A stretch of 12,071 nt of DNA from a virus, in the UHGV virus genome UHGV-0371921. One strand, 5' to 3'. The position numbers were made by a program, and so were the translations under genes. Below, one piece after another: positions 231 to 12,071 of the stretch. The notes under the pieces are model-generated. The model worked only from the letters and a program-made list of their open reading frames with translations. It did not search any database and was not told where the DNA came from. How positions within the stretch are numbered: position 1 is the stretch's first letter; every line of letters begins with the position of its first letter.

Positions 231-247
231 AACAGTGAGGTGTCACC

Positions 248-538
248 ATGATGGATTTAATTCTAAATATTGATAACGCAGGAGAGTTTAAAGACGATGG
301 TGTAACAAGCATGGACAAACCCTGCTCTGCTAAGGTTGACTCAAAATGGACCTACAAGTTTGACGGAGAGATCTTCGCAAATGATGAGAAGGTTGTAGAT
401 GCTGCAGCCATTTTAAACGCTCTAGGGTACGACCCTGTGAATTCTTTGATCAAGGATCCTGTTGAGTTTGCAGAGTATGTTCGAAAAATGGCAGATCTTG
501 CTGTGGATATTTTAAAAACTATCGACAACAAGCTGTAA
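248..538 (+). CDS. hypothetical protein (96 aa)
   Basis: ATG 248 with GTGAGG 7 nt upstream; protein-like composition; same strand as neighbours. Confidence 0.65.
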   Translation: MMDLILNIDNAGEFKDDGVTSMDKPCSAKVDSKWTYKFDGEIFANDEKVVDAAAILNALGYDPVNSLIKDPVEFAEYVRKMADLAVDILKTIDNKL

Positions 539-544
539 AAACTG

Positions 545-573
545 TTGACACAACGCTTCAGATTTAGTATCAT
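545..573 (+). promoter_or_regulatory. sigma70-like promoter TTGACA-N17-TATCAT
   Basis: TTGACA 545-550, 17 nt spacer, TATCAT 568-573; sits upstream of the HPF-like gene. Confidence 0.5.
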
Positions 574-581
574 TGTTTTCA

Positions 582-606
582 AAGAGGGTTTGGTTCCCTC
601 TTCTTT
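582..606 (+). other. stem-loop in 5' leader (AAGAGGG / CCCTCTT, 7 bp stem, 7 nt loop) followed by TCTTT
   Basis: Perfect inverted repeat 582-588 / 596-602 just after the predicted start site; possible attenuator or leader structure. Confidence 0.4.
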
Positions 607-620
607 AAAAGGAACACGTT

Positions 621-938
621 ATGCAAATTGAGATCACTGGCAACGTAGAAATCACCGAAGGCATGGTGTCTTTCATTTCCCACAAAATGTCAAAACTGGA
701 GCGTCTACATCCTTCTGTAAATCATGCACGTGTAAGTGTAAAAGTTGAAAATGATCACCAGGAAGTTATGGCGTTCATTTTTGACACTTCTGGAAAAGAA
801 GTTATTGCCAAAGCTAAGGGCAGTGATGCTTACGAGGCAACTGACCGTATGGTGGATGTTGCAGCACGTCAGCTGGCTAAATGCGGTGGAAAGAAAGGTA
901 AAGGGAAAGGCAAAGTAAAGATTGACTTTGGAGAATGA
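621..938 (+). CDS. hpf: ribosome hibernation promoting factor-like protein (RaiA/HPF/YfiA, S30AE family) with Lys/Gly-rich C-terminal tail
   Basis: MQIEITGNVEITE...KLE...VSVKVE...GKEVIAKAKGSDAYEATDRMVDVAARQLAK matches by eye E. coli Hpf (MQLNITGNNVEITE...KLE...VVLKVE...GGEIHASAEGQDMYAAIDGLIDKLARQLTK). Weak SD AAGGA; own promoter at 545-573. Confidence 0.7.
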   Translation: MQIEITGNVEITEGMVSFISHKMSKLERLHPSVNHARVSVKVENDHQEVMAFIFDTSGKEVIAKAKGSDAYEATDRMVDVAARQLAKCGGKKGKGKGKVKIDFGE

Positions 939-947
939 GGTGCTACA

Positions 948-1049
948 ATGGGCGTGATTAAGAAATTAGTCCCAAATGTAGAGATTGCATGCTTTGAAAT
1001 TATGTTTGCAATCGCAGTTGTAGTTAATGTGTTAGGTTACGGCTATTAA
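948..1049 (+). CDS. small hydrophobic peptide (33 aa), not in ORF track (below size cutoff)
   Basis: ATG 948 with GAGGTG 6 nt upstream; MGVIKKLVPNVEIACFEIMFAIAVVVNVLGYGY has a hydrophobic C-terminal half; fills the gap between flanking genes. Confidence 0.4.
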   Translation: MGVIKKLVPNVEIACFEIMFAIAVVVNVLGYGY

Positions 1050-1075
1050 TATCAAATAATTGAGGAGACCTCTAA

Positions 1076-1345
1076 ATGAAAATTAAATTATTCAAAACTG
1101 AGCTGGCAGACAAAAACTGTGGACTGGTTGAAGGCATGATTGTCGAAGCACAACCAGTTGACTATATGAAGGTGGTTCGTGATGCCCTTGGTGAAGGTTT
1201 TGATCTGATGGAGCCAGCTCTGCGAGAAGATGTTATCGAGATGGCTAAAAAGCACACACCTGAAGGAATGGTGGTGTTTGTTGCACCAGGTAACGGAGAG
1301 GAGTTGATTGTAACTCCGGATGTGTATGAGATTGTAGAGGAATAA
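1076..1345 (+). CDS. hypothetical small acidic protein (89 aa); paralog of the 2512..2769 product
   Basis: ATG 1076 with GAGGAG 8 nt upstream; shares MKIKL start and C-terminal VFV.PGNGEELIVTPDVYEIVEE-like motif with the 2512..2769 product. Confidence 0.65.
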   Translation: MKIKLFKTELADKNCGLVEGMIVEAQPVDYMKVVRDALGEGFDLMEPALREDVIEMAKKHTPEGMVVFVAPGNGEELIVTPDVYEIVEE

Positions 1346-1365
1346 TCCTGCTTGGATTAGCATAC

Positions 1366-1396
1366 TTCCTCGACAAGGAAGGTTTGTAATTATTTG
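1366..1396 (+). terminator. weak candidate intrinsic terminator (5 bp stem CTTCC/GGAAG then T-rich tract)
   Basis: Inverted repeat 1365-1369 / 1377-1381 followed by GTTTGTAATTATTTG; short stem, so low confidence. Confidence 0.25.
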
Positions 1397-1436
1397 TGGG
1401 AAAGGAATCCCAATCTCTTACCAGAGGTGATACTAT

Positions 1437-1700
1437 ATGATTGTTTATTTTAAAACTTCAGGTGGATACCCTGATTCTCAAAGCTTGATCGGAAAAACGT
1501 GCACAGCATACTCACCTCTTGATGAGGAGGTAGGAGATATTCTACGAAATATGTATCGGATTGATCCCCAAGAAGCCTTTGATCAAAACCTTGTATTTGT
1601 CAAGGGATCAGACATGAAGTCTTTGGGAGCATTCCCTGAAGCAGATGATGATGCCGTTTATTCGTTCATGACCCCTTTTGAAGCTATGGTTGTTGGGTGA
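1437..1700 (+). CDS. hypothetical protein (87 aa)
   Basis: ATG 1437 with GAGGTG 7 nt upstream. Confidence 0.65.
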   Translation: MIVYFKTSGGYPDSQSLIGKTCTAYSPLDEEVGDILRNMYRIDPQEAFDQNLVFVKGSDMKSLGAFPEADDDAVYSFMTPFEAMVVG

Positions 1701-1704
1701 TAAT

Positions 1705-2037
1705 ATGAAAGTACGCTTTATTGGTGAAACAATTCCTGTGCATCTCCGGTCGCCTGGGGATTCTGCAGATCTTGCATCTCAGAAGGCGAGAGGCTATGAT
1801 AAGAAAGTAACCTCAACCGATGTAGTGCTTGAGGCTACTAGTCTACCTGACCCTGCTGCATTCTTTAATCATTATGGATACTATTTCAGCAATCTGATGA
1901 ATATCGGTGAGCTTGTGTTTATTAGTGGTGGAGAAATTGTTAGCAAGCTTGGCGGCGATCCGGATGTCTTTCATGAAACCTGTCCTTTTGCATTTGTGGT
2001 GGGTTCAGATGTGGAAGTTATTGAGGAGGTGCGGTAA
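1705..2037 (+). CDS. hypothetical small acidic protein (110 aa)
   Basis: Track ORF begins at TTG 1678, but the first in-frame ATG (1705) lies 4 nt after the upstream stop and is the more likely start. C-terminus ends ...VVGSDVEVIEEVR. Confidence 0.6.
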   Translation: MKVRFIGETIPVHLRSPGDSADLASQKARGYDKKVTSTDVVLEATSLPDPAAFFNHYGYYFSNLMNIGELVFISGGEIVSKLGGDPDVFHETCPFAFVVGSDVEVIEEVR

Positions 2038-2432
2038 TGGTAAGCCTATACCGTGTTGAGTATAGCTCAGATACTGTATACAACGTAAGAAGCAAAGATC
2101 GCAGCGACAGAGTGCAAGAAATGTATGTTCTTGCCGACAGTCCGTTATCTGCAGCGTTCAAGGCAGGGGCTCTTGCATCTCGTTGGAAATTTGAAGGCGG
2201 ATCTTTCTATGAAGAAACCCTTGAAGATTCTGTTGTTATTTCTTCTGTAGAGGTTTCAGATGACTACGAAGGGAAAAAGTTCGTAATGCGGCACCCACAC
2301 AGCAACATTGCGTACTACTGGGATGTTCTGAACAACGAGTGGACCCCAGATCTTCAGAAGGCTACTGTGCTAACACCGTTTTTGGCAGATAAGTTCCCAC
2401 CAGATGGTAATTTATCCGCACTGTTTCAGTAA
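2037..2432 (+). CDS. hypothetical protein (131 aa); paralog of the fragment at 1..230
   Basis: ATG overlaps upstream TAA (TAATG); GAGGAGGTG SD upstream; HP.S...YW......WTP motif shared with the 1..230 fragment. Confidence 0.7.
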   Translation: MVSLYRVEYSSDTVYNVRSKDRSDRVQEMYVLADSPLSAAFKAGALASRWKFEGGSFYEETLEDSVVISSVEVSDDYEGKKFVMRHPHSNIAYYWDVLNNEWTPDLQKATVLTPFLADKFPPDGNLSALFQ

Positions 2433-2440
2433 TTTTCTTG

Positions 2441-2479
2441 CACACAGGTGTTGACAACACCAACCCTGTGTGAAATAAT
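2441..2479 (+). promoter_or_regulatory. sigma70-like promoter TTGACA-N17-AATAAT with the -35 box embedded in an 8 bp inverted repeat
   Basis: TTGACA 2451-2456, AATAAT 2474-2479; inverted repeat CACACAGG 2441-2448 / CCTGTGTG 2465-2472 flanks the -35 box (possible operator). Confidence 0.5.
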
Positions 2480-2511
2480 ACCTTCATCTTAACAAGACGG
2501 GAGACTGATTG

Positions 2512-2769
2512 ATGAAGATTAAACTGAAAAACCTTGAAATGGCAGAGATTCAGGATGGTGTTGATTTCCGCTCTAAAGATGGTGACATCTTAGAGGTAAA
2601 TCTTCCAACCTACGAGCTGATTAAAGGTTTTGGCAACGTTCAGGAAGAGGATATTCCAGAAGCTCTTATGATGTTGATTCTTGACGGAACTGTGTTTGTA
2701 GGTGAAGGTGAGAACGCTATTGCAATCCCAGGCCATTTTTATGAAGTAGCTGACGAAGAGGTGCTGTAA
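2512..2769 (+). CDS. hypothetical small acidic protein (85 aa); paralog of the 1076..1345 product
   Basis: Track starts at TTG 2509; ATG 2512 with GGGAG 9 nt upstream is preferred. MKIKL start and VFVGEGENAIAIPGHFYEVADEEVL tail resemble the 1076..1345 product. Confidence 0.65.
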   Translation: MKIKLKNLEMAEIQDGVDFRSKDGDILEVNLPTYELIKGFGNVQEEDIPEALMMLILDGTVFVGEGENAIAIPGHFYEVADEEVL

Positions 2770-3120
2770 ATGAAAGTAGAAATTACTGGTTTTGATGTTA
2801 GTGTGGTTCCGGAAGATATTTTAGCTAACTTACCGGAAGGTTTTGGTAACGGTGTTGTGGTGGATGCTGTTCCTCCTACCAAAGACATTCTGCTGCAGTA
2901 TGGTGTAGCAGAGAAAGATGTCGATAAAGTTCTTACAATGATGGCAATCGATCGTGTTGTCGTTGTTAAAGGTCTCGATAATTTTGAGAGTGATCCTCTG
3001 ATTATTCGCGGAGATGACTACAAAATCATCGATAATGAAGGCCAAGAGTTCTATGAGCCTTGTGCAGAAGATATTCTTAACTTATTACTGGAAGCAGGCA
3101 CCGAAGAGGAGGACGAATAA
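2770..3120 (+). CDS. hypothetical acidic protein (116 aa)
   Basis: ATG follows upstream TAA directly; GAGGTG SD; acidic C-terminus. Confidence 0.7.
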   Translation: MKVEITGFDVSVVPEDILANLPEGFGNGVVVDAVPPTKDILLQYGVAEKDVDKVLTMMAIDRVVVVKGLDNFESDPLIIRGDDYKIIDNEGQEFYEPCAEDILNLLLEAGTEEEDE

Positions 3121-3449
3121 TGAAGATTGACCAGTTACTGAAGGCTCGTGCAGAAAAAGCGTACACCATTAAGCTGACCAATCTGGTTCCTACTTGTCAT
3201 CCGGATGTAGGTTGGCCCGAAGGTCTGGTAGAGGGAACTGTAACAGCTGCATACCTTCCTGACATCAAGTACCTTATGGAGATCTTAGAGATGGATGAGG
3301 AAACTGCAGAACAGTTCCAGTTAGATATGAAACAGAGTGGGACTCTGGTTATTCACGGGTGGTATAATACTAAAGATGCAGAAGACCCTCTGGTAACTTC
3401 TAATCTGGCATATGAAATCTTAGGTCCTTTGAACCTGGAGGAAGACTAA
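3120..3449 (+). CDS. hypothetical acidic protein (109 aa)
   Basis: TAATG overlap with upstream gene; GAGGAGGA SD. Confidence 0.7.
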   Translation: MKIDQLLKARAEKAYTIKLTNLVPTCHPDVGWPEGLVEGTVTAAYLPDIKYLMEILEMDEETAEQFQLDMKQSGTLVIHGWYNTKDAEDPLVTSNLAYEILGPLNLEED

Positions 3450-3736
3450 TGAAAGATCTGGTTAAGATTAAGATTAAAGATACCAATGGAGAACTCAGCC
3501 ATTTTGGAATTAATGATGGTGACGAGCTGATCGCACACCTGCCTACTAAGGAGGTTGTAAGCAAAGCAGTTGCCGGAGAAGAAGCTGCAATGCAGGCTGC
3601 AGGCGTGGATGAAAACTATGTAGCTATGTGCATGTGCCGAGATCAGGTTGTTCTGTATAAAGCGTATCGACCAAACGGAGCCACGGAGTGGCTTGTATTC
3701 CGACCCGAAGGATATGAAATCTTAGAGGCACTATGA
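3449..3736 (+). CDS. hypothetical protein (95 aa)
   Basis: TAATG overlap with upstream gene; GGAGG SD. Confidence 0.7.
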   Translation: MKDLVKIKIKDTNGELSHFGINDGDELIAHLPTKEVVSKAVAGEEAAMQAAGVDENYVAMCMCRDQVVLYKAYRPNGATEWLVFRPEGYEILEAL

Positions 3737-3816
3737 TAAATCTTGCCAAGGTTGCAACGGCACTGTTAATTATTTGCTGGTCTGTAACCTTAACACTGTG
3801 TCTTGTATTTCAGTGA
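3733..3816 (+). CDS. small hydrophobic peptide (27 aa, MINLAKVATALLIICWSVTLTLCLVFQ), predicted single transmembrane helix
   Basis: ATG 3733 overlaps upstream stop (ATGA); AGAGG 5 nt upstream; stop TGA 3814-3816; below ORF-track cutoff. Confidence 0.35.
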   Translation: MINLAKVATALLIICWSVTLTLCLVFQ

Positions 3817-3825
3817 GGTGCTTGT

Positions 3826-4089
3826 ATGAACATCCTGATGTGGGTTATAGCAGTGGCGTTTGTTGCATGTTTTTGCTGCTGGGTTGCGGTGAGGATTTCT
3901 GTAGCTACCCTTCGGAAGTTGGGGTTCTCAGAATGGGATATTAATATCCTTTCTTTTCGCAATGAAACAATCTCAGCCGCCCTGCTTTGTAAGAAATTCA
4001 AGTGGGAACCTTGTGAGGTCATGAGCTATCTAAGAACAGGCGATATCCCTGAAAGATTTAAAAAAGTTCTTGACGGCAAAGATAAATGA
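3826..4089 (+). CDS. small membrane protein (87 aa) with N-terminal transmembrane helix
   Basis: ATG 3826 with GTGAGGTG SD 7 nt upstream; N-terminus MNILMWVIAVAFVACFCCWVAV is strongly hydrophobic. Confidence 0.65.
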   Translation: MNILMWVIAVAFVACFCCWVAVRISVATLRKLGFSEWDINILSFRNETISAALLCKKFKWEPCEVMSYLRTGDIPERFKKVLDGKDK

Positions 4090-4117
4090 CAGTATAGTGA
4101 CTAACAAGAGGTGAGGA

Positions 4118-4258
4118 GTGACTGATTTTACTGAAGCTTTAATGATGGCCTTGTCTGTTTTAGCGCTATCGGTGTGTTTTGGGGCGTTATTCACATCTCT
4201 GGTTAAAGTTTTACATACAGTATTATTACCCAAGGGGCGCAGTAATGACGAAGATTGA
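4118..4258 (+). CDS. small hydrophobic peptide (46 aa from GTG 4118, or 38 aa from ATG 4142)
   Basis: AAGAGG 4106-4111 lies 6 nt before GTG 4118; product ...MMALSVLALSVCFGALFTSLVKVLHTVLLPKGRSNDED contains one hydrophobic helix; 3' end overlaps the next gene start by 14 nt. Confidence 0.35.
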   Translation: MTDFTEALMMALSVLALSVCFGALFTSLVKVLHTVLLPKGRSNDED

Positions 4259-4496
4259 CTTGAATGCTGGAGACCATGTTGTTGTCAAATGCATCGGAGA
4301 TTATCTTGGATTCACAATCGGCAATACTTACGAGGCGGTAGTGGCGAAGGTTTATCATGATAAAGTCCTCAGTCTTGTATTTGACTGCGATGATGATGGA
4401 GATGACCGATACGTCTGTGAGGTGCTGGCACGAGACGACAGTGAAGACCAGAAATTCCTGGTTATTGAACTGAACGGTATTTTTGTAGAACGTTAA
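4245..4496 (+). CDS. hypothetical acidic protein (83 aa)
   Basis: Track begins at TTG 4179; the in-frame ATG 4245 with AAGGGG 7 nt upstream is preferred; contains DCDDDGDD acidic stretch. Confidence 0.6.
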   Translation: MTKIDLNAGDHVVVKCIGDYLGFTIGNTYEAVVAKVYHDKVLSLVFDCDDDGDDRYVCEVLARDDSEDQKFLVIELNGIFVER

Positions 4497-4524
4497 TTTA
4501 AAACAACATAAGGAGACTCTTACT

Positions 4525-4830
4525 ATGGCTAAATCTAAAGTTGAACTGTTCACCTCTCTTCCTTCTGACACTGCAGAGCGTGATCGCCTTCGCAAGACAA
4601 TCGAAGAACTGGTGGAACTCCAACTTCAGATTAAAGATCTGAAAGATGCCATTAAGGATATCATTCTCGTTGAGAAGCAGGATCACCTGTATTCTCCTAA
4701 ATTCATCAAATCTTTGGTGGCTACCGAGTTCGATATTCGCTATGAGGCTGAAAAACGTCGAGCTAAAATCGAAGAAGAGGTTGAGCACATGTCCGAGGCA
4801 GACATTCTGTTCAAACGCTCTGTAGAATAA
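4525..4830 (+). CDS. hypothetical charged, probably alpha-helical or coiled-coil protein (101 aa)
   Basis: Consensus AAGGAG 4510-4515, 9 nt before ATG; strong terminator directly downstream; heptad-like charged sequence. Confidence 0.75.
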   Translation: MAKSKVELFTSLPSDTAERDRLRKTIEELVELQLQIKDLKDAIKDIILVEKQDHLYSPKFIKSLVATEFDIRYEAEKRRAKIEEEVEHMSEADILFKRSVE

Positions 4831-4838
4831 TGACAAAG

Positions 4839-4863
4839 AGAGGGGCTTGGGCCCCTCTTTTTA
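4839..4863 (+). terminator. intrinsic terminator (AGAGGGGC-TTGG-GCCCCTCT then TTTTT)
   Basis: Perfect 8 bp GC-rich stem 4839-4846 / 4851-4858 followed by T5 tract. Confidence 0.8.
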
Positions 4864-4885
4864 CTATCTATGAAGGAGATTTGAG

Positions 4886-5218
4886 ATGGGTATACCGATC
4901 ACTGTAAAAGAATTGAATGAACGTGATGCAGGTGGTCTATGGCCTGCACGAAAAATACGCTGCATCCGTATGAAAGAGAACCTTGAGCATCTTGAGCAAC
5001 AGAAACGGATTGAGGTTGGTGATATTTTCGAAGTATTTTATTCTGATCGCCGTAACTGGGAAACCATTCAACCTTCCGGTTTTGTTCTTGCTAAGCTTGA
5101 CACTGGAGAAGTGATTGTTCCTGGGTTGGATATTGTCTTCGAAATTATCCAGGAGTGGGATCCGGACAAGATTAGATACGAAGAGCTATTCGGTGAAGGT
5201 ATTATCAAACCTGTGTGA
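4886..5218 (+). CDS. hypothetical protein (110 aa)
   Basis: ATG 4886 with AAGGAG 7 nt upstream. Confidence 0.7.
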   Translation: MGIPITVKELNERDAGGLWPARKIRCIRMKENLEHLEQQKRIEVGDIFEVFYSDRRNWETIQPSGFVLAKLDTGEVIVPGLDIVFEIIQEWDPDKIRYEELFGEGIIKPV

Positions 5219-5226
5219 GGTGGATT

Positions 5227-5526
5227 ATGTCTACAAAGGCGGCTAAATACTCCTACATGCCATCAACCTCTGCAGAGGTAGACTTTAGTTTCGATGTGTT
5301 TCCACTGTTTGAGGTGGTTCTGGCATACCCAACAATACTATCTACTCCTGAATCACTTGTGCCTGTTAAGTTGCAGAACGCTATGCATTCCATGCACTAC
5401 AACAACAAATGTAGGCACAGATGGTGTCAGGACGAGGAAAAAGATTTGGATAGTTTGAGAGATTTTGACAGTCACCTTTTGACACCTTTCAGCTACTCCA
5501 ACCTTGATAAGCCCTCGTGGGTATAG
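5227..5526 (+). CDS. hypothetical protein (99 aa)
   Basis: Track starts at GTG 5215; ATG 5227 with GTGAGGTGG SD is preferred. Composition is less typical (His/Cys-rich middle), so moderate confidence; followed by a terminator. Confidence 0.5.
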   Translation: MSTKAAKYSYMPSTSAEVDFSFDVFPLFEVVLAYPTILSTPESLVPVKLQNAMHSMHYNNKCRHRWCQDEEKDLDSLRDFDSHLLTPFSYSNLDKPSWV

Positions 5527-5550
5527 CAAAATATCAAATTTAAGACACCT

Positions 5551-5580
5551 AGGACGCTCTGTGGCGTCCTTTTCTTTATC
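5551..5580 (+). terminator. intrinsic terminator (AGGACGC-TCTGTG-GCGTCCT then TTTCTTTAT)
   Basis: 7 bp stem 5551-5557 / 5564-5570 followed by T-rich tract. Confidence 0.7.
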
Positions 5581-5739
5581 TGGTGCACGATTGCATACCT
5601 TGGGCAGTTAATCTCATTACAGAGCGTTTAAGAGCTCCCTACAAACAACTCCATATTTCGAGCGTAGCGAGAACGCACGTCCGTTTTGACCCAAATCACC
5701 ATACGCTCGGATTTTAACCAAACCCTCGCGGCGTTTCTG

Positions 5740-5768
5740 TTGACACATTACCGCTCCAGTGATAATAT
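5740..5768 (+). promoter_or_regulatory. sigma70-like promoter TTGACA-N17-TAATAT
   Basis: TTGACA 5740-5745, 17 nt spacer, TAATAT 5763-5768; a DnaA-box-like ATATCCACA overlaps the start region at 5765-5773. Confidence 0.55.
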
Positions 5769-5788
5769 CCACACATCATTTGGAGAAT

Positions 5789-5890
5789 ATGGGATACACA
5801 ATGAAAACATTGTCAGAGGTTTTGGTGGTGATCCTGATGATCATTACGTCCATAGCAGCTGTTGCCGGAATACTCACGGGTGGAACATGA
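5789..5890 (+). CDS. small hydrophobic peptide (33 aa, MGYTMKTLSEVLVVILMIITSIAAVAGILTGGT)
   Basis: First ORF downstream of the 5740 promoter; GGAGA 3 nt before ATG 5789 (alternative ATG 5801); one predicted transmembrane helix; below ORF-track cutoff. Confidence 0.4.
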   Translation: MGYTMKTLSEVLVVILMIITSIAAVAGILTGGT

Positions 5891-6101
5891 TCAACACACA
5901 CATGCATCTGAAGAGACATCCAAAGGAGTGACTATATGTCCCTTGGCTGAGCCAGTGAAAGAGGAAAACTTAGATTCTGAAGATTCTCCATCTTCGCTCC
6001 AGGTAGATCCTGAGGCTGATGACCTAACGTGGGAAGACATCGTAGATATCTGGTTCTCTATTATGCCTGAGCACGAAGAGTTCAGAGGTGGTAGACTATG
6101 A
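5862..6101 (+). CDS. hypothetical highly acidic protein; 5' end uncertain (track TTG 5862; alternatives TTG 5943, GTG 5955)
   Basis: Open frame with acidic, protein-like C-terminal half (EENLDSEDSPSSLQVDPEADDLTWEDIVDIWFSIMPEHEEF). No good SD before 5862; AAGGAG 5923-5928 instead serves a 4-codon mini-ORF (ATG 5936 to TGA 5948-5950). Confidence 0.4.
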   Translation: MPEYSRVEHDQHTHASEETSKGVTICPLAEPVKEENLDSEDSPSSLQVDPEADDLTWEDIVDIWFSIMPEHEEFRGGRL

Positions 6102-6222
6102 AGCACCGAGCCCACACAGGTTCCTCATGCTAAAGCATGGCCTGAAGAGGCAAACGTGCATAATTCCTGTGCATTGGGACGTATAAAACCCTGTTCACAC
6201 TCTCATTTCCAGAGGAGATTTT

Positions 6223-6438
6223 ATGAAGATAGAAATATTTGGTGGAGCTGACAACACTCGTGGCCTGATTTACCTTGAATTCGATGAATCATACCTGCCA
6301 GAGGTGTTAAATATAGACTCTGTTGCTGAGGCTTTGGGAGTAAACCCTAAAGAACTCCACTCTTGTGCTGAGATCGATGGTTGGGAAGAGACCATGAACA
6401 TTGATTTCAGTGAAGTAGAGGATGAACCGCTGGACTGA
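6223..6438 (+). CDS. hypothetical acidic protein (71 aa)
   Basis: ATG 6223 with GAGGAG 5 nt upstream; last gene of the rightward block. Confidence 0.6.
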   Translation: MKIEIFGGADNTRGLIYLEFDESYLPEVLNIDSVAEALGVNPKELHSCAEIDGWEETMNIDFSEVEDEPLD

Positions 6439-6532
6439 CGCACAATTAGCTGCCCGGCCAAAGTGCTGGAAGCGCACCTATAACACATCTTTCAACTAAA
6501 TTTCCCACCACCACAATCACTTACCTTCCACA

Positions 6533-6565
6533 CATGACTGTTTGCTTGTTTAGTGAGCAGTCATG
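6533..6565 (+). other. inverted repeat CATGACTG-N17-CAGTCATG immediately upstream of a promoter
   Basis: 8 bp arms at 6533-6540 and 6558-6565. Confidence 0.4.
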
Positions 6566-6567
6566 CC

Positions 6568-6595
6568 TTGACATTCTTGCCTATCCTGATAAAAT
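6568..6595 (+). promoter_or_regulatory. sigma70-like promoter TTGACA-N16-TAAAAT reading into the ORF-free zone
   Basis: TTGACA 6568-6573, 16 nt spacer, TAAAAT 6590-6595; no ORF with a ribosome binding site follows. Confidence 0.45.
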
Positions 6596-7119
6596 TAAGT
6601 TCTTCTCTTTTCTTTTACCGAGTAATTCGGGTTTTCTGTTCTCTTCGGTTTGAAGGGGTATGGAGATACACCTGAGTGAACAGGGTGAACAACCGAACCA
6701 TTGGCTATGGCATTAGCATGGCGAAGCGGACGGGTGACGAAAGAGGGGCCGGAGGACACCAGTCACTGCCATATGATATATGGGTGATAACCTGAAGAGT
6801 CTGAATAAGTGTTTAAGTACCAGTCAGAGGAAAAGGTGAATGGTAGCCGAAGGGGAGGGGGGTTTCTTGTATCTTTAATTTGTATATTATGTATACACTT
6901 GTAAACCAATCTCATCTGAATCTGTTTACCACACAAAGCGAATAGAGACAAATATTACCTATTAAACTTGAATTATTTATAGAAAATACCGCAACACCAC
7001 TTAAGTCTTTGATTTTACACACAAATCCTACAGATATTCAGCCTCCCTATTTAACATACCTGTAACATATTCCATACTCTACCTGCCTGATCAATTTACC
7101 CAACTACATCCCCATATTT

Positions 7120-7350
7120 TCCCTGTCTGTACTACCCCTGCCCCGCCGGGAGTCCCGTCATATCTGGCTTTCCAGCAAATATCACACCCACAAATATCAT
7201 TGCCTGAAGAGGGTTTCATCCCATAATACATACCTTGCCTGAAGATCGCTTCATACACCACGTAAATTTTTTAATTGACCTGCAATTTCTCCTCAGATAT
7301 CCCCCTGTCCCGCCGGAGAGGTTGTCTTTTCCCACACAGACCTGAAGAGT
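7120..7350. repeat. degenerate ~175 bp duplication carrying CCCTG(C/T)CCCGCCGG and CCTGAAGAG motifs
   Basis: CCCTGCCCCGCCGGGAG at 7134-7150 versus CCCTGTCCCGCCGGAG at 7302-7317; CCTGAAGAG at 7203-7211 and 7341-7349 (also CCTGAAGAT at 7238-7246). Confidence 0.5.
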
Positions 7351-7544
7351 CAGTCAGAAATATCTGAATGGGCCCAGTTCTGCCCTGTCATGAGCGGTAG
7401 CGACTGGAGTGCTGCCAGGCGGACGGAATGGGAATACTTCTCATTCTTATAATAATTCTCAAATATCGAGGCAGTGAGGCAAATTAATAGGTGAGGCCGT
7501 TCACACAGTGGCACAACATTTGCAATCTATTTTGTGAGGGTGAA

Positions 7545-7579
7545 TGAGAATACCTATCATTGTGAGAATCTTTATCATT
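7545..7579. repeat. imperfect tandem repeat TGAGAAT(ACC/CTT)TATCATT x2
   Basis: Copies at 7545-7561 and 7563-7579, 14 of 17 positions identical. Confidence 0.5.
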
Positions 7580-7933
7580 ACGGGCAATTTAACATAATAC
7601 CCATTATGCGCACCACTGGCGATACATACAGGGATTGATAACATAGGTTACTGTTTACGCACATAACAATTATATTTCTTATTATTTGTGGGGGGATATA
7701 GTTAGCAGCCAATAGATTAGATATTGACCTGCAGACTTCTGACCGTCCAGACGTCTAAACGCCCACACAACAAGGATTATACATACAACACTGAATGTAA
7801 ACAGGGCCGCAAAAATGCTACCATACAAGCTTGTAAATTTTTCATGCAGCACTTGACAAAGAGGAGAAAAACTTGTCTGACATAATATGACACTTTAAGC
7901 ACATTAAACACACTGAACATAATTGACATGCAT

Positions 7934-8038
7934 GACTGTTTACGCTGTCACTATTCACGCTATTACTATTCGCTCGCTTACTGTTCATGACCTTTACTGT
8001 TTACATTCCCAATAGTTTACATAGCTTACTGTTAACGT
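7934..8038. repeat. iteron-like cluster of ACTGTTTAC / TTACTGTT direct repeats
   Basis: Exact ACTGTTTAC at 7935-7943 and 7996-8004 (also 7650-7658 and 8472-8480 outside the cluster); variants TTACTGTTCA 7978-7987, TAGTTTACA 8013-8021, TTACTGTTAAC 8026-8036; all in one orientation. Confidence 0.6.
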
Positions 8039-8064
8039 ATAGATTATTTACTCAAAAATGATAA

Positions 8065-8084
8065 GCCATGCCATTCGTTTGCAT
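8065..8084. repeat. 20 bp direct repeat GCCATGCCATTCGTTTGCAT, left copy
   Basis: Identical 20-mer recurs at 8296-8315. Confidence 0.8.
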
Positions 8085-8130
8085 GACAATAATTATACAT
8101 GACAATAATCGCACTGATTATAATTAGCAT

Positions 8131-8282
8131 GACATAATATAAAAGCAGGGCAACTATTAGCAGATCTATAGTTGCCTTGCTTGTTATGTCATGATTAACT
8201 GAATACAAGGCAACTATGATCTGATTAATAGATTGCAGACAAACTATCACGGGGGTGATGGTTACTGCTTTTATATTATGTC
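8131..8282. repeat. 16 bp inverted repeat pair GACATAATATAAAAGC (8131-8146) / GCTTTTATATTATGTC (8267-8282) enclosing the palindrome
   Basis: Exact reverse complements. Confidence 0.75.
8149..8176. repeat. 28 bp palindrome GGCAACTAT-N10-ATAGTTGCC (candidate protein-binding site)
   Basis: 9 bp arms are exact reverse complements; further GGCAACTAT copies at 8209-8217 (direct) and 8314-8322 (inverted); 12-mer CAAGGCAACTAT is shared by the arm at 8168-8179 and the copy at 8206-8217. Confidence 0.75.
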
Positions 8283-8295
8283 GCGACTCCGTCGC

Positions 8296-8315
8296 GCCAT
8301 GCCATTCGTTTGCAT
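8296..8315. repeat. 20 bp direct repeat GCCATGCCATTCGTTTGCAT, right copy
   Basis: Identical to 8065-8084; preceded by small hairpin CGCGAC-TCC-GTCGCG (8282-8296). Confidence 0.8.
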
Positions 8316-8929
8316 AGTTGCCTTATTGTTACAGATAGAATAATTGTATTGTTAATTATTTCTTATCTTTCTATTAGTCATCTAATGATTCCAGTTAGTA
8401 TAGTAACGTACAGTAAACATTAGACGACTAAAGATTTCTCTGCTTATGGTAACCTAACGTGACAATTCCAGACTGTTTACGAAAAATGTTGACACTTGGG
8501 CCGATTTATGTTATGCAGTTTACACGAATAATTATTTTATGCAGGTATTGACTATTCCGTTATTCTATGGTTGGAATAAATGCTTAGCAGGCTATAGAAT
8601 GGCGAGCGTACGTAAATTCTGAGATCTGGCGGCTATAGTTATACTCGATTTTTCACGTAGAAAACGCTTTTGTAGTTATGTAAGTGTATGACTTATAAGA
8701 ATTTTTAGTTGTTGACAAGCTATTGAAGATATGCATCAGGTTAAATTTTGTGCAAATGCTGCATTACGTGCAATTTTGGAAGGAAAAACGTGTAAAAATG
8801 GCCCTGCTACCACACAATGAAAAATTATGCAATAGTTATTTTATATGTATGTTTGTACAGTGGGGTTAATTGCTGGCTTGTTGATTATTCCATTTGCCAG
8901 GCGGGGCCATTTGTGGTAGGAAAAGAGGA

Positions 8930-8958
8930 GACAAAAGAAAGGGGCTTTAAGCCCCTGA
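8930..8958 (-). terminator. intrinsic terminator of the leftward gene block (minus RNA: AGGGGCU-UAA-AGCCCCU then UUUCUUUUGUC)
   Basis: 7 bp stem plus U tract on the minus strand, just downstream of the last minus-strand stop codons (8976 / 8987). Confidence 0.7.
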
Positions 8959-8975
8959 CCGTGCACCTTGTTGTA

Positions 8976-9110
8976 TTATTTGTTGCTCATCCAGTTTTCC
9001 CAAGCTGCCTGATAATCTGCCTCACTACGGCGGATCTCTTCTTGCTCTTCAAGGCGGATCTCTTCTTCCAGGTACCCCAAGATGTCAGCCTTTTTGGTCT
9101 GGCGTAACAT
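8976..9110 (-). CDS. alternative -1 frame ORF (44 aa, MLRQTKKADILGYLEEEIRLEEQEEIRRSEADYQAAWENWMSNK), possibly the true C-terminal part of the 9238 gene
   Basis: Protein-like acidic sequence with EEEIR repeat; no strong SD of its own; fully overlapped by the track ORF in another frame. Confidence 0.3.
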   Translation of the reverse strand: MLRQTKKADILGYLEEEIRLEEQEEIRRSEADYQAAWENWMSNK

Positions 9111-9238
9111 CCAATCATCTTTTTACGAGTGAAGATCTTATAAGCTTTCTCGCAAACCTCTTTTTTGCTACCTTTCTGGACTTCAAGAATTCTGTAGGCC
9201 ATGTACTGAACTAATTTAAGCTGATCCAGACGTTTCAT
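8987..9238 (-). CDS. hypothetical protein; 3' half likely out of frame (see frameshift finding)
   Basis: ATG 9238 with AAAGAGGA 7 nt upstream; N-terminal 40 aa protein-like, but residues after about 40 are Lys/Arg/Ser/Trp-rich, typical of out-of-frame translation. Confidence 0.4.
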   Translation of the reverse strand: MKRLDQLKLVQYMAYRILEVQKGSKKEVCEKAYKIFTRKKMIGCYARPKRLTSWGTWKKRSALKSKKRSAVVRQIIRQLGKTG

Positions 9239-9315
9239 GATGTTTCCTCTTTATGTGGTTCGTTTTGATTAGTTGATAATACAGCAGTTCGCAGATCAGT
9301 CTTTAGCAATTCATG

Positions 9316-9534
9316 CTATTTACTCACAACGGTGTCGAAAACAAATTTTTCTTTATTGTCTAAACTCACGTATCCGATTCGACCACGCAAGCCGCAAGTA
9401 GTGCCGTACTCGTAACCATTAAGGCCTTTAACCTTCCAATCCGTACCCATTAAAACCGCATTATATTCCTGACCAACTACAAAAGCGCCCCCAGTCGATT
9501 CAATGCAAACAACTTTAATTTTACGGGTTGTCAT
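9316..9534 (-). CDS. hypothetical protein (72 aa)
   Basis: ATG 9534 with AAGAGAG upstream in a CCACACAAAGAGAG leader. Confidence 0.65.
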   Translation of the reverse strand: MTTRKIKVVCIESTGGAFVVGQEYNAVLMGTDWKVKGLNGYEYGTTCGLRGRIGYVSLDNKEKFVFDTVVSK

Positions 9535-9566
9535 TTTCTTTCTCTCTTTGTGTGGTTCTGATTAGT

Positions 9567-9580
9567 GGGCCTTTTGGCCC
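9567..9580 (-). other. GC-rich stem-loop in 5' leader (GGGCC-AAAA-GGCCC on minus RNA)
   Basis: Perfect 5 bp stem; lies between a candidate promoter and the SD of the 9316..9534 gene. Confidence 0.5.
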
Positions 9581-9588
9581 GTGTCATT

Positions 9589-9617
9589 ATCTTATTACTT
9601 ATGGCGGCAGAATTCAA
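9589..9617 (-). promoter_or_regulatory. candidate sigma70-like promoter TTGAAT-N17-TAAGAT (minus strand)
   Basis: Minus-strand -35 at 9617-9612 and -10 at 9594-9589; overlaps the 3' end of the upstream gene. Confidence 0.3.
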
Positions 9618-9867
9618 GTGTTTTTAATTGATAATCTTCCTCAGCCTGGAGTACGACCGCCTCGATCATTTCGTTGGCATTGTTAAAGCCATAACCTTTA
9701 GCGAACTCATCCGCGCCACCTTCGTGATCATGTTCTGCGTTCATCGCTTCCACAAAATGGAATTCCAAATTGTTGAGGTAGGGGCTTGATGTGCCGTCTT
9801 CTTTTTCGATGAGATCCCAAATAGCATTAAAACGTGATTCGACTTCTTGATTAATCCAGCTTGACAT
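9595..9867 (-). CDS. hypothetical acidic protein (90 aa)
   Basis: ATG 9867 with AGGAGAGAGG upstream. Confidence 0.65.
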   Translation of the reverse strand: MSSWINQEVESRFNAIWDLIEKEDGTSSPYLNNLEFHFVEAMNAEHDHEGGADEFAKGYGFNNANEMIEAVVLQAEEDYQLKTLEFCRHK

Positions 9868-9896
9868 AGTGTTTTCCTCTCTCCTGGTTATTGTGT

Positions 9897-9910
9897 GGGC
9901 ACTTTTGCCC
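9897..9910 (-). other. GC-rich stem-loop in 5' leader (GGGCA-AAAG-TGCCC on minus RNA)
   Basis: Directly downstream of the -10 of the 9922-9950 promoter and upstream of the SD. Confidence 0.5.
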
Positions 9911-9921
9911 CTTCAAGATAA

Positions 9922-9950
9922 ATGTTACCCCACCCCATGGCAGATGTCAA
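9922..9950 (-). promoter_or_regulatory. sigma70-like promoter TTGACA-N17-TAACAT (minus strand)
   Basis: Minus-strand TTGACA at 9950-9945, 17 nt spacer, TAACAT at 9927-9922; in a 210 bp intergenic gap. Confidence 0.45.
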
Positions 9951-10036
9951 CGGTTTTTATAGTTCTTATATGACAGGCAGGCCCGGTGATTGTCTCCACC
10001 CGTCGCCAGGTGCCTGCCGTGAAACAAGTATAACAA

Positions 10037-10064
10037 AAAACAGGACCATTGCAAGCCCTGTTTT
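10037..10064 (-). terminator. candidate intrinsic terminator (minus RNA: AAAACAGG...CCUGUUUU running into a U6 tract)
   Basis: Inverted repeat 10037-10044 / 10057-10064 with 12 nt loop; U tract on the minus strand; immediately after the stop of the 10079..10270 gene. Confidence 0.4.
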
Positions 10065-10078
10065 GTAGTTTATAAGGA

Positions 10079-10270
10079 TTATATTTTTTCGCCTATGTAG
10101 TCCGGTCGGTTTTTCTCTGTCATGCGCTTGAGCAATTCTTGCATGTTGCTTATGGCTTGCAGTGTATCCCCTTCCAGACTTGAATCAACATAATCAGGAT
10201 CGTCTATAACCTTTCTATGATTATGATAACGCAGTACCGCCAATACCTTTCTAACTTGTTCGATATTCAT
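10079..10270 (-). CDS. hypothetical protein (63 aa)
   Basis: ATG 10270; weak SD AAAGAGCG; protein-like sequence. Confidence 0.6.
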   Translation of the reverse strand: MNIEQVRKVLAVLRYHNHRKVIDDPDYVDSSLEGDTLQAISNMQELLKRMTEKNRPDYIGEKI

Positions 10271-10281
10271 TTTATCGCTCT

Positions 10282-10416
10282 TTAAAACAAGGTGCCAACC
10301 GTTCCCAATAGATCACTGACTACCAGGACAATACTGATTAGCACATACCTAACCATAAGGGGAAAGAGCGCCAGCGATCCAGCCACAATCCCCAAGGTGA
10401 TGATTATCTTTCTCAT
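10282..10416 (-). CDS. small hydrophobic protein (44 aa), two predicted transmembrane segments
   Basis: ATG 10416 lies 2 nt after the upstream stop (translational coupling); no clear SD; below track cutoff. Confidence 0.4.
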   Translation of the reverse strand: MRKIIITLGIVAGSLALFPLMVRYVLISIVLVVSDLLGTVGTLF

Positions 10417-10418
10417 GG

Positions 10419-10703
10419 TTAACGGTTTACGTAAGCTTTACCGTTTACGGTGATGGGCAGATCTTCCAGGTCTGGATCTTCCTTAAGGTCGCGAGCAAGC
10501 TCACCGCACCGGATACCCTCGAATCCGTAGTACTCTGTTGTGCCGTCATTAAAAGTTTTAGCGGCAAGGCATAAGCGATAAGTAACCCCGATTTGATTGA
10601 CGGCATGGATATCCGTTAGATTAACCTCTTTTGCCAGCTCTTTAGCCATTACAGGCGCATTAAGTCCAACAACCAGGGCAACTACTGCGATCATCTTTTT
10701 CAT
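10419..10703 (-). CDS. small secreted or periplasmic protein with N-terminal signal peptide (94 aa, two Cys)
   Basis: ATG 10703 with AAGAGG 9 nt upstream; MKKMIAVVALVVGLNAPVMA-KEL has positive n-region, hydrophobic core and AxA-like cleavage motif. Confidence 0.7.
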   Translation of the reverse strand: MKKMIAVVALVVGLNAPVMAKELAKEVNLTDIHAVNQIGVTYRLCLAAKTFNDGTTEYYGFEGIRCGELARDLKEDPDLEDLPITVNGKAYVNR

Positions 10704-10731
10704 TGTGTCTAGCCTCTTTCTGCTACGTTTA

Positions 10732-10749
10732 AGGCGGCGGTAACCGCCT
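10732..10749 (-). other. GC-rich stem-loop in 5' leader (AGGCGG / CCGCCT, 6 nt loop)
   Basis: Perfect 6 bp inverted repeat upstream of the SD of the signal-peptide gene. Confidence 0.45.
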
Positions 10750-10794
10750 GTTTATGATTTATTGGTTAATTTTCAGGTATCGCTATAAATTAAA

Positions 10795-11010
10795 CTATGC
10801 TGTACGCTCAACTATAACAACGGTTTGCGGGATCTCACCTTCCACCACTATCAAGGCCTTTTTCTGCGTGATGGATATCTTTACCCGTTGCAGCGTGGCG
10901 GTGAAGTCTTTCATTTCGTCACGTGGTGTTTTAGTGCAATGCCAGATCTCTGGCTTGCCGATCTGCAAGCCTCGCAAGAATTCCGTTTTACCTGTCTTAT
11001 TCGTGATCAT
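10795..11010 (-). CDS. hypothetical protein (71 aa from ATG 11010; track extends to ATG 11034)
   Basis: ATG 11010 has AAGGTG 6 nt upstream, whereas ATG 11034 has no SD; more protein-like than the two overlapping plus-strand ORFs. Confidence 0.5.
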   Translation of the reverse strand: MITNKTGKTEFLRGLQIGKPEIWHCTKTPRDEMKDFTATLQRVKISITQKKALIVVEGEIPQTVVIVERTA

Positions 11011-11020
11011 TTGATTCACC

Positions 11021-11125
11021 TTAACCGATACCATGGGAAGATAGGATCATGTTAGCCATAGTTGCAACCACTCCAACCGATAATGCCAGGCCAACTACTA
11101 CAACCGTGAAAATTTTATCTAACAT
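11021..11125 (-). CDS. small hydrophobic peptide (34 aa, MLDKIFTVVVVGLALSVGVVATMANMILSSHGIG)
   Basis: ATG 11125 with GAGGG about 7 nt upstream; single hydrophobic helix; below track cutoff. Confidence 0.35.
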   Translation of the reverse strand: MLDKIFTVVVVGLALSVGVVATMANMILSSHGIG

Positions 11126-11144
11126 GATTCTACCCTCATTAATG

Positions 11145-11161
11145 GCGGGAAGTATTCCCGC
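11145..11161 (-). other. stem-loop GCGGGAA-GTA-TTCCCGC (7 bp stem, 3 nt loop)
   Basis: Perfect palindrome just upstream of the SD of the 11021..11125 peptide. Confidence 0.45.
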
Positions 11162-11207
11162 GCTATGTAGTACACTTTACCAGATTGTTGACTGTTGTCA
11201 AACTATT

Positions 11208-11387
11208 TTAACGATAATCATCATATGCTTTATTGACCTGGCGAATATAACATTCAAAAGCTAGATCAATAGATTTATATTCACGGATATATTCACCATA
11301 GGAAACCACATACATTTCTATAGCTTCCTCATATGCGAGAAGAATAGAATCTAAGCCTACGATCTCAGTCTTTGCAATAATAGCCAT
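11208..11387 (-). CDS. hypothetical acidic protein (59 aa, MAIIAKTEIVGLDSILLAYEEAIEMYVVSYGEYIREYKSIDLAFECYIRQVNKAYDDYR)
   Basis: ATG 11387 with AAAGAGGA upstream in a CCACAAAGAGGA leader; shares the MAI start context with the 12036 gene; missing from track because below 60 aa. Confidence 0.5.
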   Translation of the reverse strand: MAIIAKTEIVGLDSILLAYEEAIEMYVVSYGEYIREYKSIDLAFECYIRQVNKAYDDYR

Positions 11388-11413
11388 GATTTTTTATCCT
11401 CTTTGTGGTTGGT

Positions 11414-11428
11414 GGGGCTTGTTGCCCC
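11414..11428 (-). other. GC-rich stem-loop in 5' leader (GGGGC-AACAA-GCCCC on minus RNA)
   Basis: Perfect 5 bp stem upstream of the SD of the 11208..11387 gene. Confidence 0.5.
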
Positions 11429-11463
11429 CTTTGATTTATATACTACAGTCTTATATGGTCATG

Positions 11464-11697
11464 TCAACTATTTTCAAAAAATTTTTCTGCTGTGATATTT
11501 TTCCCGGTAGGGTTCGCTACTTTCAAAATTTTATCATGCACTGGACGCCCAAAAGAATAAGATCCGTATACAGTAAACCAATAATCGCCGTCAGGTTGTA
11601 CTATTACCGCCGCATATGGTACGCCTTTTTCGTTTTTGCTGACAAAATAGATCACATTGCCATTAATAGCCTCAGCGCGTTTAATTTGTTCCATCAT
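11464..11697 (-). CDS. hypothetical protein (77 aa)
   Basis: ATG 11697 with AGAGAGG upstream. Confidence 0.6.
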   Translation of the reverse strand: MMEQIKRAEAINGNVIYFVSKNEKGVPYAAVIVQPDGDYWFTVYGSYSFGRPVHDKILKVANPTGKNITAEKFFENS

Positions 11698-11727
11698 GAT
11701 GATTTACCTCTCTTTATTTTCATAATT

Positions 11728-11744
11728 GGGGCCTTTTCGGCCCC
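11728..11744 (-). other. GC-rich stem-loop (GGGGCC-GAAAA-GGCCCC on minus RNA)
   Basis: Perfect 6 bp GC stem between the stop of the 11752 gene and the SD of the 11697 gene. Confidence 0.5.
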
Positions 11745-11751
11745 GCCAGGT

Positions 11752-12036
11752 TTATTTATTGATAGCGTGCAGCGGGAAAGGTACGCCAGGTTGATAGATA
11801 ACTTTTACAACCTCATCAGGGCAAAAGAAATTGCAGAATTCACCCTGATAAGCCTCATCCTCTTTCAATTCTTCATCAACATACTCAAAAAAGTAGTCGA
11901 TGCTTGGATAATCCTGGCCGGGATTATAGTCTACCATCGTTAATAACAATTCTTGATCATTCCGTAGGATATGCATACCCGCTTTTAAGTATTTTGCTTC
12001 CATTTCCACTACATCGCCAACGGTGACAATAGCCAT
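11752..12036 (-). CDS. hypothetical acidic protein (94 aa)
   Basis: ATG 12036 with AGGAG about 8 nt upstream; protein-like; the overlapping 185 aa plus-strand ORF looks like an antisense artefact. Confidence 0.65.
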   Translation of the reverse strand: MAIVTVGDVVEMEAKYLKAGMHILRNDQELLLTMVDYNPGQDYPSIDYFFEYVDEELKEDEAYQGEFCNFFCPDEVVKVIYQPGVPFPLHAINK

Positions 12037-12071
12037 GATTTTAACTCCTATCTATCCACGCACTCGTCTGA

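Follow-up and report, generated by a model that had tools for sequence, protein, structure and literature searches.

ORF171 of rV5-like coliphages encodes a conserved small protein with a predicted signal peptide and a possible role at the envelope of the infected cell

The gene described here is part of the leftward gene block in a 12,071 nt stretch of viral DNA (UHGV virus genome UHGV-0371921). This stretch is referred to as the window, and all positions are window coordinates unless another genome is named. The gene extends on the minus strand from an ATG at 10703 to a TAA at 10419 (10419-10703, stop codon included) and has 94 codons, specifying a precursor of 94 amino acids (aa). An initial annotation, made from the sequence alone, had proposed a small secreted protein for this open reading frame (ORF), and the ORF is present as described there. 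A PHROG match and the identity to annotated phage proteins identify it as the orthologue of ORF171 from phage rV5, and this name is used throughout. The match to phrog_9845, a family of unknown function, has E=6.9e-62 and aligns residues 1-94 with the complete profile (positions 1-94 of 94). The product is 100% identical to APECc02_061 from Escherichia phage APECc02 and 98% identical to rV5 ORF171 (ABI79236). At the nucleotide level, the right-hand 3 kb of the window are 97% identical to phage APECc02; for many other genomes of Vequintavirus, the rV5-like phages, the identity is 92-97%. A Shine-Dalgarno sequence, AAGAGG, can be read from the sequence 9 nt 5′ of the ATG (10713-10718, minus strand) and is kept as (A/G)AAGAGG in all 13 loci that were compared.

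In all 173 phage genomes which carry the gene, including those of APECc02 and rV5, the product is labelled "hypothetical". The rV5 genome paper lists gp171 without annotation, and in the literature we found no functional, transcriptome, proteome or fitness data on it. A CRISPRi-ART study used the Vequintavirus EdH4 only for knock-downs of MCP and rII. Likewise, a literature search for superinfection exclusion in Vequintavirinae returned nothing specific.

Lack of conservation in relatives had been named in the initial annotation as an argument that would count against its proposal. The frame proved to be well conserved. Full-length copies were detected by tblastn in 173 phage records, which belong without exception to the Vequintavirus and Phapecoctavirus-like groups. 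A large protein collection contains homologues in 42 clusters with 72-98% identity, plus fragments. An exhaustive profile search against 1.84 billion cluster representatives retrieved just two clusters (at 50% identity), both from the ORF171 family, one of them being a lineage (P0043) which is about 56% identical and is encoded on rV5-like contigs of 134-142 kb. Neither this search nor a word-indexed search yielded any bacterial or characterised relative. When the genes from Vequintavirus and Phapecoctavirus are compared by the Nei-Gojobori method, the synonymous distance (dS) is 0.41-0.66 and the non-synonymous distance (dN) is 0.09-0.12, with dN/dS ratios of 0.16-0.27. Judged from these sequence comparisons, the frame is under clear purifying selection. 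Because of the phrog_9845 match, the copies in 173 records and the low dN/dS ratios, ORF171 is a genuine conserved gene of rV5-like (Vequintavirus/Phapecoctavirus) phages. Variation between the two genera is concentrated in residues 21-41, which include the first strand of the structure model described below. Residues 42-94, to which the acidic helix GELARDLKEDPDLE and the C-terminal strand with TVNGK belong, are nearly invariant, and on this pattern they are the likely functional surface.

The first 20 codons (MKKMIAVVALVVGLNAPVMA; 10644-10703, minus strand) are predicted to specify a Sec signal peptide for signal peptidase I (SPase I) with the cleavage site VMA/KE. As the prediction was made from the defining features of signal peptides and from the conservation of these features among homologues, the individual regions are described here. 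The n-region, M-K-K at residues 1-3, occurs in 40 of 40 full-length homologues. It is followed by the h-region MIAVVALVVGL with 11 residues and a mean Kyte-Doolittle value of 3.09. The best 19-residue window reaches just 1.74, and the h-region is therefore too short for a transmembrane helix. The c-region NAPVMA has Pro at -4, Val at -3 and Ala at -1 with no Pro at +1, so that the cut is predicted after residue 20. Val or Ala at -3 and Ala at -1 are kept throughout the family, and the complete layout of n-, h- and c-region is shared by all 40 full-length homologues, which bears out the Sec signal peptide of the initial annotation. Where the signal peptides of relatives differ, the exchanges are conservative (V to A at -3, L to I). 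The distant P0043 lineage has a different hydrophobic core, yet it retains MAA/KE. A regular expression for the lipobox, [LVI][ASTVI][GAS]C, has no match in the product, and there is no Cys before residue 45. The rV5 genome paper, which applied TMHMM and Phobius, gives one transmembrane domain (TMD) each for gp170 and gp173 and none for gp171. A missing TMD is what would be expected for gp171 if its hydrophobic segment had been read as a signal peptide.

From these sequence features we are confident that the ORF171 product is exported and cleaved by SPase I. It is very improbable that the hydrophobic N-terminus is incidental and the protein not secreted, or that the ORF is not expressed. In favour of such a view it may be said that our literature search found no expression data on ORF171 and that the crude signal peptide filter which we applied also flagged one probably spurious ORF, located in a non-coding region, among the 56 ORFs of the window. 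For this reason the filter alone is not decisive while conservation is. The strong purifying selection, the conserved ribosome binding site and the retention of the signal peptide architecture in three lineages as well as in a structural relative (see below) argue against a silent or cytoplasmic product.

The mature part (10422-10643, minus strand) has 74 aa with a mass of 8.29 kDa, a pI of 4.81 and a net charge of about -4. As the initial annotation had pointed out, it contains exactly two cysteines, C45 (10571-10569) and C66 (10508-10506), and 39 of 40 full-length homologues have retained this pair. An AlphaFold2 model, computed from a shallow alignment of mature sequences, has a mean predicted local distance difference test score (pLDDT) of 90.6 and a predicted template modelling score (pTM) of 0.76. 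It shows an acidic domain in the order beta-beta-beta-alpha-beta, with strands at residues 6-15, 21-30 and 36-42, a helix at 46-55 and a last strand at 64-66 (mature numbering). In the model, mature Cys25 (Cys45 of the precursor) is placed in strand 2 and mature Cys46 (Cys66) is the first residue of the helix. It is probable that the two cysteines form a single stabilising disulfide in the oxidising periplasm, since they are kept in 39 of 40 family members as well as in all 12 proteins of a distant family (see below), where they are modelled at equivalent positions of the secondary structure.

Structure prediction followed by a fold search had been suggested as a check in the initial annotation. 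The first of these gave a confident model and the second failed to yield a relative of known structure. With Foldseek, no PDB entry matched the ORF171 model at E<=0.001, the best TM-score (TM) being 0.38, and a model of the distant family likewise found nothing at this threshold. Searching PDB by sequence gave chance matches only (best E=0.19 among matches listed up to E<=10). On the evidence of the model, the fold appears to be without a solved structural relative. Pfam has no family at E<=1 for the ORF171 product, and scans of ORF171 and three neighbouring genes against Pfam, NCBIfam and PADLOC returned nothing or sub-threshold noise. The PHROGs assigned to ORF171 and its neighbours are solely families of unknown function.

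The weak Foldseek matches of both models are to RNase H, PIWI, integrase and YeaZ domains (TM 0.3-0.55, E>0.03). The N-terminal half of the RNase H-like fold has the order beta-beta-beta-alpha-beta in common with the ORF171 model. However, the ORF171 domain is only half the size, is predicted to be periplasmic, and an acidic catalytic set is not shared across ORF171 and the distant family. We rejected membership among nucleases or RNase H-like proteins, as the matches are weak and partial, no acidic set is common to the two phage families and the likeness is one of topology only. The ORF171 product is very probably a binder and not an enzyme, because a domain of this size has no room for an active site and a conserved catalytic constellation is absent. 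We also count towards a binding function that there is no Pfam, NCBIfam or PADLOC family, that there is no PDB relative, and that the near-invariant residues 42-94 stand against a variable first strand.

The distant family was detected in the BFVD library of viral protein models. There, the sole good non-self match of the ORF171 model is A0A4D6DYR4 (QBZ71517) from Escherichia phage Lidtsur, with TM 0.72, a root mean square deviation of 2.9 Å over 73 columns, 18% identity, probability 1.00 and E=3e-3 in Foldseek. Lidtsur is a Bonnellvirus with a 42-kb genome, a T7-like podophage of the order Autographivirales. Its protein is encoded at 4001-4315 of the Lidtsur genome, in the early region and 5′ of the primase, and has a signal peptide (...TMALA/AT), a 77-aa mature part and two cysteines. 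Together with 11 relatives it forms a family of 12 clusters, all on podophage contigs of about 42-43 kb, in which both cysteines are found in 12 of 12 and the C-terminus TTIVTLSINGHNINLT is invariant. As in the P0043 lineage, the h-region differs from that of ORF171 while a cleavage motif, here (V/M/A)-A-x-A, is kept at the matching place. In an independent AlphaFold model of this family (pLDDT 85.6), the elements follow each other as in the ORF171 model, and the two cysteines likewise occupy strand 2 and the N-terminus of the helix. The Lidtsur protein shares with ORF171 a C-terminal strand with (V/I)-N-G and the location in the early region; it differs in belonging to another virus order and in having no adjoining membrane peptide. 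There is no PHROG match for it.

At the sequence level the similarity of the two families falls short of significance. BLASTP gives E=1.0. A full-length hhalign comparison aligns 81 collinear columns with E=0.069, and in this alignment the cleavage sites, the two pairs of cysteines and the N-G residues of the last strands coincide; when the signal peptides are removed the mature parts align with E=0.36. Judged by the models, architecture and fold are common to both families, and it is plausible that they descend from one ancestor. This structural link between ORF171 and Bonnellvirus was not found in the databases and literature that we searched. As the Lidtsur protein is equally uncharacterised, the link adds no functional information.

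ORF171 is the third of five small genes which are probably transcribed as a unit. The rV5 paper describes the leftward block of small genes as transcription unit 10-1-238-164, dotted with sigma70-type promoters. A sequence scan of the window revealed a candidate promoter of this type, TTGACA-16-TAAAGT with an extended -10 TG (11174-11201, minus strand), which would drive ORF173-172-171-170-169, and a PhagePromoter annotation exists at the equivalent site in phage Gotham. The late-promoter motif of rV5 is absent from the leftward block of the window, including the ORF171 unit. The sequence thus places ORF171 in a putative sigma70-type early operon.

The first gene of the unit codes for a hydrophobic peptide of 34 aa, the homologue of rV5 gp173 (11021-11125, minus strand; assigned by homology), which is unannotated in APECc02. 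In the rV5 table, gp173 and gp170 are each given as "membrane protein, 1 TMD". The second gene is the orthologue of ORF172 (phrog_5988, with the match covering residues 9-79). Mechanical translation extends its frame to 11034, but the position of the gp173 homologue implies that it really starts at the internal ATG at 11010, as in rV5, which gives 71 aa (10795-11010, minus strand).

Between ORF172 and ORF171, the scan detected a G+C-rich hairpin, AGGCGGU-UACC-GCCGCCU, without a U-tract on the coding strand (10732-10749, minus strand). The 91-nt leader of ORF171 has a folding energy of -14.6 kcal/mol (z -1.44). The hairpin lies about 15 nt 5′ of the Shine-Dalgarno sequence of ORF171, and this place is conserved while the stems differ: GGCGG-TTA-CCGCC in Vequintavirus and GGGGCG-GTAA-CGCCCC in Phapecoctavirus, with half of the hairpin deleted in two loci (L009 and L012). 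It may be an element for stability or processing of the mRNA or a terminator for the opposite strand.

ORF170, the fourth gene, codes for a very hydrophobic membrane peptide of 44 aa (phrog_16005; 10282-10416, minus strand). Its start codon follows 2 nt after the stop codon of ORF171 (TAAccATG). It is located directly 3′ of ORF171 in 12 of 13 loci from three lineages, and the junction is either TAAccATG/TAGatATG with a 2-nt spacing or an ATGA overlap. This arrangement suggests translational coupling of the two genes. ORF170 evolves faster than ORF171, with 57-93% identity compared to 80-100%. The last gene is the orthologue of ORF169 (phrog_9599, assigned by PHROG match), which codes for 63 aa and has no hydrophobic segment (10079-10270, minus strand). 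The operon is closed by a hairpin with a T-run which resembles an intrinsic terminator and was found by the same scan (10037-10064, minus strand), and the genomes of EdH4 and Murica both have an annotated terminator there. Judging by their sequences, three of the five products of the early unit appear to be targeted to the envelope.

The linkage to membrane peptides has to be considered when the fate of the N-terminal segment is discussed. It might be an uncleaved signal anchor which tethers the ORF171 protein in an inner-membrane complex with ORF170 and ORF173, and the inferred co-transcription and translational coupling would agree with this, as would the precedent of T4 RI, which is reported to have long been regarded as signal-anchored (PMC8385771). 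Against this, the h-region has just 11-12 residues, and behind it there are a Pro, which breaks helices, and a canonical V/A-x-A site that is kept even where the h-region has diverged. We regard an anchored protein as quite improbable.

Some observations concern other parts of the window and related database records. A region of about 2.5 kb without credible ORFs (6440-8975) separates the rightward block (1-6438) from the leftward block (8976-12071) and corresponds to the region of rV5 described as having "no observable ORFs 104013-106618". No tRNA and no Rfam match occurs in it. It overlaps an AT-rich segment (7800-9000, GC content 0.35-0.37) with short direct repeats, among them an exact 20-nt pair at 8065/8296 and a 20-mer with three copies at 7641/7926/8019, and with a perfect 18-nt inverted repeat (8131-8148/8265-8282). 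In several related GenBank entries the numbering begins within the ORF-free region, which could be an origin, the site of the genome termini or a source of non-coding RNA.

The rightward block contains what appears by eye to be a tandem array of diverged paralogues, small acidic ORFs at 1076-1345, 2509-2769, 2770-3120, 3120-3449 and 3449-3736 (plus strand) and also at 6223-6438. By eye, they share a start with MK(I/V) and a C-terminal x-Y-E-(I/V/L), as in DVYEIVEE, HFYEVADEE, DDYKIIDNE, LAYEILGPL and EGYEILEAL. In APECc02, an ORF of 87 aa is labelled "DNA translocase FtsK" and one of 89 aa "sigma 54 modulation factor" (window positions 8987-9238 on the minus strand and about 1076-1345 on the plus strand, respectively). 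Proteins that deserve these names would be far larger, and in rV5 both products are called hypothetical. The labels are probably over-annotations, which have spread to the phages ime, magaca, pangalan and nomo. Finally, about 15-22 records named "Campylobacter phage" (e.g. A12a, A13b and A147, with C. jejuni given as host) are 94-99% identical to window positions 9000-12071. This looks like mislabelling or co-isolation of coliphages.

The course of events which we propose for the ORF171 product is as follows. The 94-aa precursor would be brought to the Sec translocon by its N-terminal signal peptide and would be cut after Ala20 by signal peptidase I, so that a soluble acidic protein of 74 aa would be freed into the periplasm of the infected cell. 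There, Cys45 and Cys66 would be oxidised, presumably by DsbA, into one disulfide. The domain, a compact module of a sheet plus a helix, would then act by stoichiometric binding to a periplasm-exposed target. It would be made together with the coupled 44-aa ORF170 peptide of the inner membrane and with the ORF173-homologue peptide from the sigma70-type early promoter. Overall, we tentatively explain the ORF171 product as an exported periplasmic binder which protects the envelope of the infected cell, and consider this possible although somewhat short of even odds. A more specific role, superinfection exclusion or protection against damage and lysis-from-without by secondary phages, rests on analogy and is more doubtful.

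Several points weigh against this explanation. Neither by sequence nor by fold is there any similarity of ORF171 to Spackle, Imm, RI, Llp or Sim. One homologue (P0031) carries the exchange C45Y. The first mature residues, KELAK, have a net charge of +1, which is slightly unfavourable for Sec export, although in Phapecoctavirus the mature forms begin with NDLPES. A frameshifted ORF171 on a 137-kb contig (P0042) is without its signal peptide and without the first half of the protein, which suggests that the gene is dispensable. In phage Murica (L014, 2791-2808), ORF170 has been cleanly deleted between ORF171 and ORF169, and this, together with the absence of an adjoining membrane peptide for the Lidtsur protein, implies that a membrane partner is not obligatory. 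Also, we know of no obvious target shared between the myovirus group and the Bonnellvirus podophages.

The same data may be read in terms of the host. The protein could bind a host protein of the periplasm or envelope for the benefit of the current infection, as an envelope takeover or counter-defence factor which does not exclude other phages. The target might be an enzyme that remodels peptidoglycan, a protease, the machinery of Tol-Pal or of export, or a defence sensor located in the envelope. The signal peptide, the fold and the cysteines fit such a function equally, as does the predicted early expression with two membrane peptides, and a host target would account better than a phage-specific target for the occurrence of a structural relative in unrelated podophages of the same host genus. 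On the other hand, the scans against Pfam, NCBIfam and PADLOC found no match to known inhibitor or anti-defence families and no target can be named. Furthermore, just two 50%-identity clusters were retrieved from 1.84 billion representatives, and so narrow a taxonomic range is unusual for a general factor of host takeover. We consider such a takeover function rather unlikely.

Going beyond protection of the envelope by an exported binder, one may speculate that ORF171 and the Bonnellvirus protein belong to a new fold family and are the first of its members to be recognised, as Sec-exported mini-proteins with a single disulfide from unrelated lytic coliphages. They might represent a new class of periplasmic effectors which block secondary infection or disarm an envelope-located function of the host, with ORF171 acting together with ORF170. 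We regard this wider proposal as unlikely.

Small exported early proteins are a means by which lytic phages re-engineer the envelope of a cell that they already own. To our knowledge, only few of them have a known mechanism, namely Spackle, Imm and RI of T4 and Llp of T5. ORF171 would be an uncharacterised member of the small exported early proteins. As it stands, it is a conserved hypothetical protein with a signal peptide, which will not surprise the specialist. Phages related to rV5 are widely used in cocktails for biocontrol of E. coli O157 and for therapy, and if the proposed role is true, an exclusion factor in these phages would affect the interference among cocktail members. The compact, confidently modelled and apparently unsolved fold, together with an obvious test, makes the ORF171 protein a cheap target for such work.

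The functions listed in the initial annotation (superinfection exclusion, regulation of lysozyme or spanins, receptor masking) were drawn from analogy only, and two of them, the regulation of spanins and receptor masking by a lipoprotein, are contradicted. A regulator of spanins is contradicted by the lack of a lipobox and by the position of the gene, which is not near the endolysin gene (gp89 in rV5). Similarly, we rejected the assignment as a spanin itself (i-, o- or u-spanin), as there is no lipobox, the fold is mostly beta and the gene is outside the lysis cassette. A lysozyme regulator of a known type found no support either, and the families Ivy, MliC/PliC and PliG were rejected because there is no Pfam match at E<=1 and no structural match with TM>0.4 in PDB, where Spackle was among the entries that did not match. 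Receptor masking in the manner of Llp or Cor needs a lipoprotein. T5 Llp and the Cor family resemble ORF171 in being small, early, exported and disulfide-containing and in protecting the infected cell (PMC9586334). However, they are outer-membrane lipoproteins, whereas the ORF171 product has no lipobox and no structural match, and we rejected it as a receptor blocker of this type because the lipobox is missing.

The antiholin RI of T4 offers another comparison. Like the ORF171 product it is small and made early, and it has a signal peptide that can be cleaved off and acts in the periplasm by binding to another protein (PMC8385771, PMC11413866). An RI-like ORF171 product would be a regulator of lysis timing which delays lysis by binding either the holin, on its periplasmic face, or a small membrane partner. 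The size class and the export signal match those of RI, which has about 97 aa and a cleavable signal peptide (PMC8385771), and the adjoining peptides from ORF170 and the ORF173 homologue might be parts of a membrane-lesion system. Yet RI is helical and the ORF171 model is mostly beta; there is no homology in sequence or fold, and membership in the RI family was rejected on both counts. A link to the lysis genes of rV5 is lacking as well. According to the rV5 paper, the lysin is gp89 and the putative holin is gp129, a 78-aa protein with two TMDs. Both are encoded far from ORF171, a Pfam scan found no lysin gene in the window, and a holin of this build leaves little sequence for a periplasmic domain which could be bound in the manner of RI. 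Moreover, the Bonnellvirus relatives have a different lysis cassette. A function in lysis timing is thus improbable.

With respect to superinfection exclusion, the comparison is with Spackle (gp61.3) of T4, which inhibits the tail lysozyme gp5 in the periplasm and is a superinfection exclusion factor (PMC7650644). Spackle is synthesised early as a precursor of 97 aa, from which a Sec signal of 22 aa is cleaved; the 75-aa mature protein has one disulfide and binds its target 1:1 in the periplasm (PMC7650644). The build of ORF171 is nearly identical, with a precursor of 94 aa, a predicted signal of 20 aa, a mature part of 74 aa and two cysteines. The folds are different, as Spackle is all-helical while the ORF171 model has four strands and one helix. 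There is no sequence homology in Pfam, PHROG or PDB searches by sequence, Spackle entries are absent from the PDB matches of Foldseek, and membership in the Spackle family was rejected as neither sequence homology nor an all-alpha fold was found. It has been mentioned that ORF171 is accompanied by a membrane peptide, and this partnership recalls the Imm/Sp pair of T4. It is because of the nearly identical build and of this partner that a role in exclusion is put forward. In this sense ORF171 may, with considerable reservation, be seen as a functional analogue of the Spackle/Imm pair and not as its homologue.

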